DNA from: a virus
Lineage: Duplodnaviria > Heunggongvirae > Uroviricota > Caudoviricetes
DNA: 39,073 nt
Direction: 5' to 3' (one strand)
IMG/VR virus record: IMGVR_UViG_2869976549_000001
Shown here: positions 1 through 39,073 of the stretch, piece after piece
Layout: each line of letters begins with the position of its first letter
Position numbering within the stretch: the stretch's first letter is position 1
Notes under the pieces: model-generated
What the model was told of the DNA's origin: nothing
The model's database searches: none
What the model saw: the letters and a program-made list of their open reading frames with translations, nothing else
Made by a program: the position numbers and the translations under genes

Positions 1-303
1 ATGAGCAGAAAAACCCAACGTTACTCTAAAGAGTTCAAAGCCGAAGCTGTCAGAACGGTTCCTGAAAATCAACTTTCGATCAGTGAAGGCGCTTCCCGAT
101 TATCTCTTCCTGAAGGCACTTTAGGACAATGGGTTACCGCCGCCAGAAAAGGGCTCGGTACTCCTGGTTCCCGCACGGTGGCTGAACTGGAATCTGAAAT
201 TCTGCAACTGCGTAAGGCGTTAAATGAAGCTCGCCTTGAGCGAGATATATTAAAAAAAGCAACAGCGTATTTTGCACAGGAGTCGCTGAAAAATACGCGT
301 TAA
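1..303 (+). CDS. IS600 transposase OrfA (HTH part)
   Basis: 100-aa ORF MSRKTQRYSKEFKAEAV...; A-run slippery site at 252-258 for -1 frameshift into orfB. Confidence 0.85.
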   Translation: MSRKTQRYSKEFKAEAVRTVPENQLSISEGASRLSLPEGTLGQWVTAARKGLGTPGSRTVAELESEILQLRKALNEARLERDILKKATAYFAQESLKNTR

Positions 304-338
304 TCGAACAATGGCGACAACAATTTCCCATTGAAGCG

Positions 339-1157
339 ATGTGTCAGGTATTTGGTGTATCCAGGAGCGGTTATTACAACTGGGTACAGCATGAACCCTC
401 AGACAGAAAACAAAGTGATGAGCGGCTAAAACTGGAGATTAAGGTGGCACATATCCGCACTCGCGAAACATATGGAACCCGGCGGCTCCAGACGGAGCTG
501 GCAGAGAATGGCATCATCGTTGGTCGTGACCGACTGGCACGTCTTCGTAAGGAGCTAAGGCTACGCTGTAAGCAGAAACGCAAGTTCAGAGCGACTACGA
601 ACTCGAACCACAATCTGCCAGTTGCGCCAAATCTGCTGAACCAGACGTTCGCTCCTACAGCACCAAATCAGGTCTGGGTGGCGGACCTGACGTATGTTGC
701 CACACAGGAGGGATGGTTGTACCTCGCTGGCATCAAAGATGTTTATACGTGCGAAATTGTCGGCTACGCCATGGGAGAGCGCATGACAAAAGAGCTGACA
801 GGTAAAGCCCTGTTTATGGCGCTCAGGAGCCAGCGCCCACCTGCCGGGCTAATCCACCACTCTGATCGAGGTTCACAGTACTGCGCATACGATTACCGGG
901 TCATACAGGAGCAGTCTGGTCTGAAAACATCAATGTCGCGTAAAGGTAACTGTTACGACAACGCTCCGATGGAAAGCTTCTGGGGAACGCTGAAAAATGA
1001 GAGCCTGAGCCACTATCGTTTTAATAACCGGGATGAAGCCATCTCAGTAATACGGGAATACATTGAGATTTTCTACAATCGTCAGCGTCGTCACTCTCGT
1101 CTGGGGAATATCTCCCCGGCAGCCTTCAGGGAAAAATATCATCAGATGGCTGCTTAA
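339..1157 (+). CDS. IS600 transposase OrfB (DDE catalytic part)
   Basis: 272-aa ORF in the -1 frame relative to orfA; IS3-family integrase-core motifs (HSDRGSQY, NAPMESFWG). Confidence 0.85.
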   Translation: MCQVFGVSRSGYYNWVQHEPSDRKQSDERLKLEIKVAHIRTRETYGTRRLQTELAENGIIVGRDRLARLRKELRLRCKQKRKFRATTNSNHNLPVAPNLLNQTFAPTAPNQVWVADLTYVATQEGWLYLAGIKDVYTCEIVGYAMGERMTKELTGKALFMALRSQRPPAGLIHHSDRGSQYCAYDYRVIQEQSGLKTSMSRKGNCYDNAPMESFWGTLKNESLSHYRFNNRDEAISVIREYIEIFYNRQRRHSRLGNISPAAFREKYHQMAA

Positions 1158-1200
1158 AAAAAGAACAAATGGTAGTGTCCGCTATTGCCAGTACACCTCA

Positions 1201-1549
1201 ATTGCTCTGCGGCTTCGCTCAGAGCTGGCGTATGTTCCCGGCCTACTGATTCACACAGGTAATCAACGAAACCGGACACCAGTTTTCGTTCGCGAGGCGT
1301 GATCGCCCCACCGACCGGAGTCCAGTAATCGAAACCCAGTTGCAGGAGTTTGAAAAAACGCTTGTGGAATGCGTAGTTACACACACGCTTAAAGTCTGCG
1401 TGTATCCACTCACCTATTTTGATTTGATGCAGAAAATCGCAACTCTCCGGCGTCGCCGGGAGAAGTAATCCGGAAGAGGTTTGTTTGACCAGTTGTATAT
1501 GTGCCATCGGCTTTCTCCGGTGGCACGGTGTTACACAGCAGGAGTTCAA
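1201..1549 (-). pseudogene. Hypothetical prophage protein, 3' end truncated by IS600 copy 1
   Basis: Minus-strand ORF 1154..1549 runs from unique DNA into the IS600 right end, so its last residues are IS-encoded; start overlaps the upstream ORF stop (ATGA coupling at 1546-1549). Confidence 0.35.
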
Positions 1550-1833
1550 TCCTGCTCAAGATTGTAGATGAGTTTATTCTTCAGCAAAAGCAGAAAACCA
1601 GCCTTAAAACCAATCTCTTTCAAAACCCGTAATGATGTGACAAATTCGTCCTCACGCAAAATAAAACCGTCCGTCAGAAGTCCATTACAAAAATAAAATA
1701 ACACAGCACCGCTCTTCCTTTGTTGAGATTGCAAACATCTAATGCGGCAATGGCTGACAATCGCTCCATTCTCAACGCGCACAGCATAGAGGCCATTTTC
1801 ACTAAAAATTTCACGCAATTCTTCGATTTTCAT
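1546..1833 (-). CDS. Hypothetical prophage protein (95 aa)
   Basis: ORF translationally coupled to the downstream ORF; no family recognised. Confidence 0.3.
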   Translation of the reverse strand: MKIEELREIFSENGLYAVRVENGAIVSHCRIRCLQSQQRKSGAVLFYFCNGLLTDGFILREDEFVTSLRVLKEIGFKAGFLLLLKNKLIYNLEQD

Positions 1834-2082
1834 CTTCAGAATCCTTCCAGATAAATAGCTCTCCCCTGTTCGGGGTCCATCCCTCTTCTCCCTGCGCGCT
1901 ACTTAAGTGAGTCGATTCTATCTGCGAAGGTGCGCGAATCAAATTCACCGGAAATAAACAACAAAAAACCCGCCGAAACGCTGAGAGATCACAGCGATGG
2001 GCGGGTTAAGTGCGGGTGCGTTGAGGATGCCTGACACATCAGAGGTGGGCGGGGATGGGATCAGCTCCCCGCCCGGTCACTC

Positions 2083-38015: not shown

Positions 38016-38122
38016 TTATTATTGATCCTCATTGTTTATATATTAATATGTTCGTGCAAATGGAGTGAGGATTCTTTAAAAAAACGCGCCTGTAAATAGT
38101 TAAGAACAGGAAGAACTGTTGG

Positions 38123-38205
38123 GGATGTGGCTGGCCGAAAATGAAGGGGTGAAGTTCTGGCTCAATGTGCTGACTGAACTGAAAAAACGCGGTTGGTCGC
38201 CCTAC
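38123..38205 (+). pseudogene. Remnant (about 27 codons) of an IS256/mutator-family transposase
   Basis: MWLAENEGVKFWLNVLTELKKRG resembles the conserved block of mutator-type transposases, then diverges and stops. Confidence 0.35.
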
Positions 38206-38492
38206 CTTTTCATCAAGCCAGTAGTCTGCCCACCACTGCATCATTTCTCTGCGCTTATCGAGATACTGAGCATGGTTGTAAATTCAGCTAACCCAGTGCG
38301 TTGACAAAAAATTAGCGCAAGAGGACAAAAAATCACCTTGCGCTAATGCTCTGTATCAGGTCACTAATACCATCTAAGTGGTTGATTCATAGTGACTGGA
38401 TATGTTGTGTTTTGCAGTATTATGCAGTCTATTTTTTAAGCTAAATGTATTATAATGCATTGATATTAATGATTTTTACTGTTTCTCGTTCA

Positions 38493-38507
38493 GCTTTTTA
38501 TACTAAC
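38493..38507. other. attR core (GCTTTTTTATACTAA) with a lambdoid P arm to its left and host B' sequence to its right
   Basis: Core preceded by ...CTGTATCAGGTCACTAATACCATCTAAGTGGTTGATTCATAGTGACTGGATATGTTGTGTTTTGCAGT... and followed by CTTGAGCGAAACGGGAAGG. Confidence 0.9.
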
Positions 38508-38596
38508 TTGAGCGAAACGGGAAGGTAAAAAGACAAAAAGTTGTTTTTAATACCTTTAAGTGATACCAGATGGCATTGCGCCATCTGGCAGAGTGA

Positions 38597-39073
38597 TTAA
38601 CTAAACATCGCAGTAATCGAGGCGCTTGCCAGAGAGTGGAAATGAACGTTAAACCCGACCATCGCGCCGCTGGCACCTTCATCGACATCAATACGTTCTA
38701 TATCCAGCGCGTGAACGGTAAAAATGTAGCGATGAGTTTCGCCTTTCGGCGGTGCTGCGCCATCGTACCCGGTTTTACCAAAGTCGGTACGCGTCTGCAA
38801 AACGCCGTCTGGCATTGCTACCAGACCAGAGCCAAACCCTTGCGGTAATACGCGGGTATCAGCGGGTAAGTTAACAACTACCCAGTGCCACCAGCCGGAG
38901 CCGGTTGGCGCATCCGGGTCGTAGCAGGTGACAACAAAACTTTTCGTTCCCGCAGGAACATCATCCCACGCCAGATGCGGTGAAATATTATCGCCATCGT
39001 AACCCATGCCGTTAAAGACATGACGATGCGGCAATTTATCGCCATCGCGCAGATCGTTACTGATGAGTTTCAT
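38597..39073 (-). CDS. ybhB: PEBP-family protein YbhB
   Basis: Complete 158-aa ORF MKLISNDLRDGDKLPHRHVFNGMGYDGDNISPHLAWDDVPAGTKSF...; the gene flanking attB-lambda on the bio side; ATG is the last codon of the window. Confidence 0.9.
   Translation of the reverse strand: MKLISNDLRDGDKLPHRHVFNGMGYDGDNISPHLAWDDVPAGTKSFVVTCYDPDAPTGSGWWHWVVVNLPADTRVLPQGFGSGLVAMPDGVLQTRTDFGKTGYDGAAPPKGETHRYIFTVHALDIERIDVDEGASGAMVGFNVHFHSLASASITAMFS

Follow-up and report, generated by a model that had tools for sequence, protein, structure and literature searches.

Insertion sequences and IS-bounded rearrangements in two prophage remnants of a 39-kb region very probably derived from the Shigella sonnei chromosome

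The stretch of DNA considered here, IMG/VR record IMGVR_UViG_2869976549_000001 (39,073 nucleotides, called the window throughout), carries chromosomal genes of a bacterial host, the remnants of two prophages, and eleven copies of insertion sequences (IS): four of IS600, two each of IS2 and IS1, and one each of IS911, IS630, and ISEc20, an element of the IS110 family. All eleven had been recognized in a first-pass annotation made from the letters alone, and each has now been mapped to the base. A comparison of synteny with Escherichia coli K-12, which that annotation had proposed, recovers the host backbone. The pgl-ybhD segment (25454-27654) is colinear with K-12 at 98.8% (model NF008258, 559 bits), and the backbone also covers the 5'-truncated ybhJ to ybhC (28414-32163) and ybhB (38495-39073); it is interrupted by the two prophages and has suffered a host deletion of 2,813 bp. 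Prophage A ends at 25453, where the core of its attachment (att) site, TTCATGAAGCAAA, overlaps the start codon of pgl; its left att site and a fragment of its integrase gene (int) lie just outside the window next to modC, and the core is duplicated on that side in the S. sonnei locus L015. Prophage B, a remnant of about 6.3 kb, sits at the classical attλ site, flanked by ybhC and ybhB, and is bounded by the attL core at 32148-32163 and the attR core at 38495-38510; it consists of a truncated int, IS600 copy 4, a tail-fibre gene, a DUF4376 gene, ipaH, and a scrap of an IS256-family transposase gene. The window is very probably the modC-pgl-ybhC-ybhB region of the S. sonnei chromosome, with two prophage remnants that have decayed through the Shigella-wide expansion of IS.

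The Shigella source had been suggested in advance and agrees with exact S. sonnei proteins and with S. sonnei assemblies that match at 99.99-100%. By exact-sequence look-up, the 5'-truncated YbhJ (726 residues) is S. sonnei Ss046 entry Q3Z419, and an open reading frame (ORF) of 417 residues that joins IS600 to the tail-fibre gene is S. sonnei Q3Z414/AAZ87498. The IS630 transposase is an exact S. sonnei/Shigella protein and the IpaH protein is found exactly in S. sonnei, S. flexneri, and S. boydii; the truncated DUF1367 ORF (131 residues) is matched by no record. At the nucleotide level, S. sonnei assemblies match positions 26252-39073 at 99.99% (locus L006, one mismatch), S. sonnei locus L015 matches positions 1-5571 at 100%, and S. 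sonnei 53G (HE616528, locus L016) has long stretches in common with the window at 99.8-100% identity. Other loci cited by label are L013 (S. sonnei CP032523), L008 and L014 (both S. sonnei), L021 (K-12), and L035 (the prophage of FDAARGOS_943). In none of 5,426 complete E. coli genomes does coverage of either half of the window reach 80%, and the best partial matches are FDAARGOS_943 and FDAARGOS_944, both ipaH-positive and labelled E. coli. The corresponding modC-pgl-ybhC-ybhB-bioA region of S. sonnei Ss046 and 53G has the same host gene order, both prophage remnants, and ipaH, together with the same IS600/tail-fibre, IS1/ybhJ, IS911/late-region, and IS2-in-holin junctions. However, 53G has IS600 copy 2, IS2 copy 1, ISEc20, and IS630 absent at these sites and an uninverted early region with DUF1367-YbcO-Q, and S. 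sonnei L014 and L015 are without IS2 copy 1 and without a 10-bp duplication found in the ISEc20 of the window. Because 53G and L014/L015 miss several of its insertions and rearrangements, the window represents a further-decayed strain variant. The features and their positions are collected in Table 1.

Table 1. Features of the window in order of position (copies of an element are numbered from the left)
Feature	Position	Strand	Remarks
IS600 copy 1 (IS3 family)	1-1200	+	window starts at IS position 65; rearrangement junction
Prophage A, early/nin segment	1201-5570	-	inverted relative to 53G and FDAARGOS_943; colinear with L001 10566-14908
IS2 copy 1 (IS3 family)	5571-6901	-	1331 bp; duplication CCGTC; in O-like replication gene
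IS600 copy 2 (IS3 family)	6947-8210	+	1264 bp; duplication ACC; in same O-like replication gene
Prophage A, immunity region	8211-9882		5' end of O-like gene, YdaT, Cro, DicA-like repressor, DUF1391; colinear with L001 14944-16616
IS600 copy 3 (IS3 family)	9883-10588	+	first 706 bp only; cut off by end of IS911
IS911 (IS3 family)	10589-11837	-	1249 bp; between IS600 position 706 and phage late region
ISEc20 (IS110 family)	~12379-13837	-	in G-run upstream of holin gene; boundaries ambiguous by a few G
Holin gene	13848-14045	+	codons 1-66 of 71 before IS2 copy 2; PF04971
IS2 copy 2 (IS3 family)	14046-15376	-	1331 bp; duplication GTAAG; in holin gene
Lysis/packaging genes	15377-19452	+	full-length lysozyme, Rz, DedA (minus strand), hyp254, large terminase; about 59 portal codons
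IS630	19453-20605	+	1153 bp; TA duplication in CTAG target; in portal gene
Head segment	20606-24281	+	rest of portal, Mu-F-like head protein, DUF2213, cement protein; last of structural module
IS1 copy 1	24282-25049	+	768 bp; no 9-bp duplication; deletion junction
Prophage A, right end	25050-25466		DNA-invertase fragment and 13-bp att core TTCATGAAGCAAA
Host genes pgl (+), ybhD (-)	25451-27646		both intact; followed by first 25 nucleotides of ybhH
IS1 copy 2	27647-28414	-	768 bp; no 9-bp duplication; deletion junction in host DNA
Truncated ybhJ, REP/BIME cluster, ybhC, attL	28415-32163		ybhJ ORF 726 residues versus 753; ybhC intact
λ-type integrase	32233-33029	-	N terminus missing, cut by IS600 copy 4; 270 residues versus 356 in L008; PF00589
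IS600 copy 4 (IS3 family)	33030-34293	-	1264 bp; flanks TGA/TTA, no duplication; deletion junction of truncated int to 5'-truncated tail-fibre gene
Tail-fibre and DUF4376 genes	34294-36072	+	PF08400 from model position 18; PF14301
ipaH	36252-38015	-	intact, 587 residues; type III effector E3 ubiquitin ligase gene
IS256/Mutator transposase scrap	~38104-38202	+	33 codons, upstream of ipaH; PF00872 Transposase_mut
attR and ybhB	38495-39073	-	attR core 38495-38510; ybhB 38597-39073 intact, PF01161, 100% identical to K-12

The IS were called from self-BLAST for repeats, direct reading of ends and flanks, and protein family models; the self-comparison yields four repeat families, comprising elements of 1264, 1331, and 768 bp and a short tandem of the repetitive extragenic palindromic (REP) type at 30605-30799. 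The six families of the first-pass annotation are correct as a count of IS types, to which the IS256 scrap can be added, but there are only four families, since the taxonomy of ISfinder groups IS600, IS2, and IS911 together under IS3, and all match NF033516. The scrap itself was also called correctly, as a 33-codon Transposase_mut match upstream of ipaH (25.5 bits versus a cut-off of 21, E = 7e-6, model positions 193-225 of 379), and with a domain match over 33 residues only it is a fragment with neither ends nor catalytic residues. IS600 copies 1 and 2 are 100% identical over 1200 bp, and the copies are 99.8% identical to copies annotated in RefSeq as "IS3-like element IS600 family transposase." The ends of copies 2 and 4, both 1264 bp, read TGAGGTAGCCTGAG and TGAGGTGTACTGGC and form imperfect terminal inverted repeats starting TGAGGT; the ORFs are orfA (100 residues) and orfB (272 residues; NF033516, 334 bits versus a cut-off of 160), and the flanks of copy 2 show the 3-bp duplication (ACC/ACC). 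The two IS2 copies are 100% identical to each other and belong to IS2 by their length of 1331 bp, their 5-bp duplications, and the IS2-specific TnpA/TnpB models, both of which lie above cut-off (PRK09409, 724 bits versus 597; PRK09413, 276 versus 229). Over its full length IS911 is 99.9% identical to RefSeq copies annotated "IS3-like element IS911 family transposase," with the ends, including TGAAGTGG, read directly. Both IS1 copies have the ends GGTGATGCTGCCAACTTACTGAT and GGTAATGACTCCAACTTATTGAT and encode InsA/InsB (NF033558, 144 bits versus a cut-off of 100), and they are 99.5% identical to a copy annotated as IS1A family. The IS630 transposase is a single ORF of 343 residues (19554-20585; NF033545, 258-259 bits versus a cut-off of 100) whose exact match is named IS630 in S. 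sonnei.

Together the IS account for 12,493 bp, or 32% of the window. The S. sonnei chromosome of about 4.9 Mb has about 297 IS sites (about 290-300; PMC7373316), from which approximately 2.4 would be expected in 39 kb; eleven are observed (P(≥11) ~4e-5), a genuine local excess of about 4-5 times the chromosomal average. Nine of the eleven copies are in prophage A, one is in prophage B, and one is in host core DNA; because nine are in prophage A, the excess is a property of dispensable prophage DNA. The mix of elements, which the first-pass annotation considered typical of Shigella and enteroinvasive E. coli (EIEC), is in keeping with the list given by Hawkey et al. (2020) for S. sonnei 53G, namely IS1, IS2, IS4, IS21, IS600, IS609, IS630, IS911, ISEc20, and ISSso1/4/6 (PMC7373316). 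The same work reports that IS1, IS2, IS4, IS600, and IS911 have expanded in parallel in all Shigella and some EIEC, that gene loss in Shigella occurs by insertion and by IS-mediated deletion, and that current IS activity is greatest in S. sonnei (PMC7373316). The window resembles this expansion in its repertoire, in combining insertion with IS-bounded deletion, and in polymorphism from strain to strain, but it contains no IS4, which is among the five IS widespread in Shigella.

Target duplications are retained by both IS2 copies, IS600 copy 2, and IS630, as the first-pass annotation had stated, and its interpretation of such copies as simple insertions is borne out by empty sites in relatives (L014/L015 and 53G). 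IS2 copy 1 and IS600 copy 2 are independent insertions 45 bp apart, each with its own duplication, which divide the O-like replication gene into three pieces; the former is missing from the otherwise near-identical S. sonnei loci L014 and L015 and from 53G, and the site of the latter is empty in L001 and 53G. The flanks of IS630 read CTA/IS/TAG, and the empty site in L001 reads CTGG. In contrast to the four elements that 53G lacks at these positions, IS2 copy 2 and IS911 are common to the window and 53G, with IS2 copy 2 at the same site in L013 and L016. The FDAARGOS_943 loci have empty sites for IS2 copy 1, IS600 copy 2, ISEc20, IS2 copy 2, and IS630. Because the occupied sites differ among L014/L015, 53G, and the window, they describe a nested history of ancestral, lineage-specific, and strain-specific insertions, as expected for ongoing IS activity.

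The first-pass annotation was equally correct that no duplication flanks the two IS1 copies, IS600 copy 4, or IS911, and its view that such copies mark rearrangement junctions holds, in that each sits exactly where relatives hold extra DNA; IS600 copy 1 can be added to them, and the transposase gene of the IS110-family element is itself frameshifted. IS1 copy 1 replaces 20,630 bp of a prophage of the FDAARGOS_943 type (its flanks correspond to L035 22056 and 1425) and joins the cement-protein gene to a DNA-invertase fragment, with the loss of the major capsid, connector, tail, baseplate, and tail-fibre genes and of ipaHb. IS1 copy 2 stands in place of the 2,813 bp missing from host DNA, a stretch from codon 9 of ybhH through ybhI to codon 31 of ybhJ (K-12 L021 7784/10598). 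Of the host genes, ybhH and ybhI have thus been lost and ybhJ has been shortened, whereas pgl, ybhD, ybhC, and ybhB are intact, in agreement with the earlier claim that some host genes are inactivated. Neither IS1 copy, nor the pair taken as a composite, is flanked by a 9-bp duplication. The arrangement IS1-pgl-ybhD-IS1 is therefore rejected as a composite transposon, there being no such duplication round the pair and perfect synteny with K-12; an inversion between the two inverted IS1 copies is likewise rejected, since the flanks show no reciprocal swap and pgl-ybhD has the K-12 orientation relative to ybhJ-ybhC. IS600 copy 4 replaces about 3 kb (the int N terminus, xis, antA, and DUF551) that still lies between the same IS600 and int in S. 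sonnei L008, and the ORF of the tail-fibre gene now begins inside the IS (34245-35498). IS600 copy 1 joins the prophage A int fragment outside the window to the truncated DUF1367 gene; L015 supplied the 64 bp of this copy that lie outside the window together with its left flank, and AAC on the left and ATT on the right make no 3-bp duplication. The identity of IS600 copy 3 to the other copies ends at 10588, exactly where the IS911 terminal repeat TGAAGTGG starts. IS911 has flanks of ACC and TTG and no 3-bp duplication, which is expected at a rearrangement junction and does not affect its identity; its right flank is the same as that in 53G and its left flank is different. The identity and limits of each element, the presence or absence of duplications, the empty sites, the endpoints of the deletions, and the source organism are established.

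Compared with L001, positions 1201-9882 (the early region) run colinearly in the plus orientation and positions 11838-22477 in the minus orientation, so that the early region is inverted relative to the late region (11838-24281). The segment between the two that carries Q and tRNA genes is gone, and a tRNA scan finds no tRNA genes left in the window; 53G retains the uninverted order with DUF1367-YbcO-Q intact. Recombination between IS600 copies followed by an IS911-bounded deletion offers one parsimonious path to this arrangement. Recombination between IS600 copies 1 and 3 was rejected as the sole cause of the inversion, because these copies are now in direct orientation and the right end of copy 1, not its left, abuts the truncated DUF1367 gene; at least one further IS600 copy and a later deletion are needed. 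It was also considered whether 53G could represent the ancestral state of IS911, but it is not a clean one, since IS911 is there too without a duplication (GGG/TTG) and adjoins a tRNA-like 3' end. In the recombination-gene region of the same prophage, S. sonnei 53G (L016 1471-3838) and CP032523 (L013 223-2590) have a tandem-like structure of two IS600 copies head to tail, of which the second starts from about IS position 98.

The order and mechanism of these rearrangements, as well as relaxed selection as the cause of the clustering, are inferred from the sequences compared. The two prophages very probably decayed through the expansion of IS1, IS2, IS600, and IS911, to which S. sonnei adds IS630 and ISEc20, and three processes can be recognized. 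In the first, simple transpositions that have retained their target duplications, several of them lineage- or strain-specific, interrupt single genes (IS2 and IS600 in the replication gene, IS2 in the holin gene, and IS630 in the portal gene), with ISEc20 inserting upstream of the holin gene. In the second, IS-bounded deletions, which would have arisen through recombination between IS of the same type or through transposase-mediated adjacent deletion, each leave one IS with mismatched flanks and have removed about 20 kb including the tail genes (IS1 copy 1), ybhH-ybhI and the 5' part of ybhJ (IS1 copy 2), and about 3 kb of int-xis-ant (IS600 copy 4). In the third, the early region would have been inverted, most simply by recombination of two oppositely oriented IS600 copies, one inside DUF1367 and the other close to int, and an IS911-bounded deletion would then have removed the Q/tRNA region and the rest of IS600 copy 3. 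The dispensable prophage A carries nine of the eleven IS, and the effector gene ipaH has survived intact.

The clustering in prophage A might instead reflect adaptive disarmament, in which the hits in the replication (twice), holin, and portal genes and upstream of the holin gene, together with the loss of Q and the tail genes, were selected because they locked in a lethal prophage while its useful cargo was kept. In keeping with this, five independent simple insertions lie in or beside genes essential for induction, lysis, or packaging, two of them within 45 bp of each other in one replication gene; ISEc20 occupies the same site upstream of the holin gene in L019, with E. coli matches extending into the holin flank; and the ipaH gene of prophage B is intact with an MxiE-box-like motif upstream. 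However, many lytic genes are intact (lysozyme, Rz, terminase), additional hits bring no benefit to a prophage that has already lost Q, int, and its tail genes, close strains differ in the insertions they carry, as expected of neutral recent events, and prophage A did not keep its own ipaHb copy, which is deleted. Selected disarmament is therefore unlikely, and decay under relaxed selection is the preferred reading of the clustering.

With respect to the source, EIEC or a Shigella species other than S. sonnei would have to be considered because the best E. coli matches, FDAARGOS_943 and FDAARGOS_944, are labelled E. coli and bear ipaHb and IS600, and because the IpaH protein is common to S. 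flexneri and S. boydii. These two genomes, however, cover only about 50% of each half of the window and differ at most IS sites, the junction-specific ORFs (YbhJ and the tail-fibre hybrid) are named from S. sonnei only, and the junctions are common to assemblies including that of S. sonnei 53G at 99.8-100%; a source other than S. sonnei is accordingly very improbable. That the duplication-less copies are assembly artefacts from collapsed or mis-joined repeats is scarcely credible: repeats such as these IS, 0.8-1.3 kb long and 100% identical, are a classic cause of misassembly, but the junctions of truncated int/IS600/tail fibre and IS1/truncated ybhJ recur in L006, IS600/tail fibre in L008, IS600 copy 3/IS911 and int fragment/IS600 copy 1/DUF1367 in L014/L015, and IS911/late region in L013/L016, and junction-spanning ORFs are found on 54-243 contigs.

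Several points weigh against the reading of the window as an S. sonnei region decayed by IS expansion, or limit how far it can be taken. 53G is itself rearranged, with IS911 flanks of GGG/TTG and only 290 bp of IS600 copy 3 kept, and no sampled genome is a true ancestor. IS2 copy 1 is carried by none of the loci compared. The IS names derive from the way in which RefSeq/PGAP annotates near-identical copies, together with matches to NCBIfam/Pfam models. Besides neutrality, selection to disarm the phage or a target preference could account for the concentration of IS in prophage DNA.

The prophage of FDAARGOS_943 (NZ_CP065615), an ipaH prophage between pgl and ybhA, is 98.7-99.9% identical to prophage A over the early, lysis, and head modules and constitutes a near-complete template for it. 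It retains int, recE, Q, four tRNA genes, the capsid, tail, baseplate, and fibre genes, and ipaHb, and has IS of its own, an IS2 in the terminase gene and IS1 copies; relative to it, the window is missing about 23 kb and has the early region inverted. The early/nin segment contains the truncated DUF1367 gene, Rem, hok/sok, QueH, hyp118, DUF977, YdaV (DnaC-like), and the 3' part of the O-like gene; a tblastn comparison with an intact relative (L012) places the cut in DUF1367 at about residue 106 of 199. The DicA-like repressor is intact (135 residues; NF007257 DicA, 237 bits), positions 15377-19452 are colinear, in inverted orientation, with L001 7282-1872, and the head segment is colinear with FDAARGOS_943 up to L035 22056. 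The earlier statement that most phage genes are inactivated stands only in part. About seven are interrupted or truncated (DUF1367, the O-like replication gene, holin at codon 66 of 71, portal, the prophage B integrase, tail fibre, and YdaT) and much of both prophages is deleted, but about 19 phage ORFs survive at full length, among them the repressor, Cro, YdaV, QueH, hok/sok, lysozyme, Rz, terminase, and head proteins. The prophages are thus dead mainly through deletions and a few key hits and not through damage to most of the surviving ORFs.

Some further observations concern individual parts of prophage A. The YdaT gene (8395-8820, minus strand) has a stop within its first dozen codons that is due to a point mutation, not to an IS, and the same shortened call of 101 residues is found in 53G and L014. 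The hok/sok-type toxin-antitoxin module at 2086-2408 (minus strand) is intact, with a Hok of 51 residues and a sok RNA (RF01794, 117 bits). Within the O-like gene, a 27-bp stretch (5252-5278) recurs 24 bp downstream (5276-5302), and its copy number differs from that in FDAARGOS_943 and L012. Just left of the window, S. sonnei has lost about 749 bp of ybhA beside the left att site and the int fragment of prophage A, with no IS at the junction (L015 12426-12571 versus K-12 L021 4703-5451).

In prophage B the ipaH gene, claimed in the first-pass annotation, is intact and its product scores above the cut-off of the IpaH_Shig model (NF046045, 563 bits versus 550). A motif, GGCGCGTTTTTTTAAAG, at 38074-38090 on the minus strand precedes the ipaH start by 59-75 nucleotides and separates the gene from the IS256 scrap; it departs from the MxiE-box consensus at three positions, and 28% of shuffles match somewhere in the window, making it a weak lead. 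Positions 34293-37034, which comprise the tail-fibre and DUF4376 genes and the C-terminal part of ipaH, are 99.4% identical to L035 5685-2944 in the pgl-site prophage of FDAARGOS_943, although the N-terminal leucine-rich repeat parts of ipaH differ between that prophage and the attλ remnant; this pattern suggests that unrelated prophages have exchanged ipaH cassettes as modules. In the adjacent host DNA, the tandem at 30605-30799 between ybhJ and ybhC is an ordinary E. coli intergenic repeat, a REP/bacterial interspersed mosaic element (BIME) also present in K-12, within which positions 30676-30746 match the REP-derived naRNA4 of Rfam (RF02564, 63 bits).

ISEc20 is 98.5-99% identical to copies annotated under that name. 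Its ends, GTTACTTTATTCG and AATAGGGGCA, form no terminal inverted repeats, and it has no classical target duplication. Neither L001, 53G, nor an EIEC genome has the element at this position, and the empty site reads GTCGGGGGGCGGG. At all eight of the independent sites examined the arrangement is CCCC/IS/CCCCC in the orientation of the IS, and the element therefore inserts into G/C homopolymer runs; every copy inspected has CCCC on one side and at least five C on the other. The run beside it contains 9 G in the window, 6-7 in L014/L015, and 5 in L019. The transposase gene (12404-13610) is split into ORFs of 203 and 224 residues by a 10-bp tandem duplication, two copies of CCCAGCGAAG at 13002-13021, between a DEDD domain of the PF01548 type and the Transposase_20 domain. 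NF033542 matches both ORFs (model positions 1-150 and 128-342), each of which, because the gene is split, falls below the full-length cut-off. An intact transposase of 398 residues is encoded at the same site in L015, and the unsplit form occupies this site in the sister strains L014, L015, and L019. The identical 1459-bp split variant nevertheless occupies six independent sites in 53G, and a further S. sonnei genome has it at two; the 224-residue ORF is also found in a different copy interrupted by IS21, and the 203-residue ORF at other ISEc20 sites. The left end of the element has 227 non-coding nucleotides that fold into two long stem-loops (z = -2.55); an Rfam scan of the window matched only sok and the REP-derived naRNA4, and no bridge-RNA family or IS frameshift element. 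A 66-bp piece of the left end with its junction (13776-13841) has 100% matches inside regions annotated as Rz (i-spanin) genes in several E. coli genomes, where it may represent a solo remnant or a footprint that ISEc20 has left in further lambdoid lysis cassettes.

Recombinases of the IS110 family currently attract attention because they are RNA-guided and programmable. ISEc20 resembles the bridge-RNA-guided enzymes of the IS621 type in its pair of DEDD/RuvC-like and Transposase_20 domains, in having no terminal inverted repeats, in a 227-nucleotide non-coding left end with predicted stem-loops, where a putative bridge RNA would be encoded, and in strongly sequence-specific insertion; it differs in that the transposase is split in the copy in the window and in many S. 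sonnei copies and in that its left end has no Rfam match. The number of split copies raises the question of whether the variant is dead. An active variant, in which the two halves worked together or the duplication acted as a reversible slippage switch, is improbable; if true, it would explain the presence of split ISEc20 at at least seven independent G/C-run sites in S. sonnei when sister strains have the unsplit form at the prophage site. The ordinary explanation is that the split element would be mobilized in trans by unsplit copies. A multi-copy, split-transposase ISEc20 that targets G/C runs is the only item in the region that might repay further work.

The expansion of IS over prophage remnants in S. 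sonnei is a kind of feature already known, a well-documented hallmark of genome decay in Shigella, and the region adds no new principle to it. Its practical value is for annotation, through exact IS boundaries, pseudogene calls, and att sites, and for the use of strain-polymorphic IS sites as markers in the typing of S. sonnei. It is, however, a local case of textbook quality of the way in which IS expansion erodes a Shigella genome, in which knock-outs of single genes, IS-bounded deletions of host metabolic genes and of prophage modules, and an inversion are found together and the virulence effector gene ipaH has been spared.

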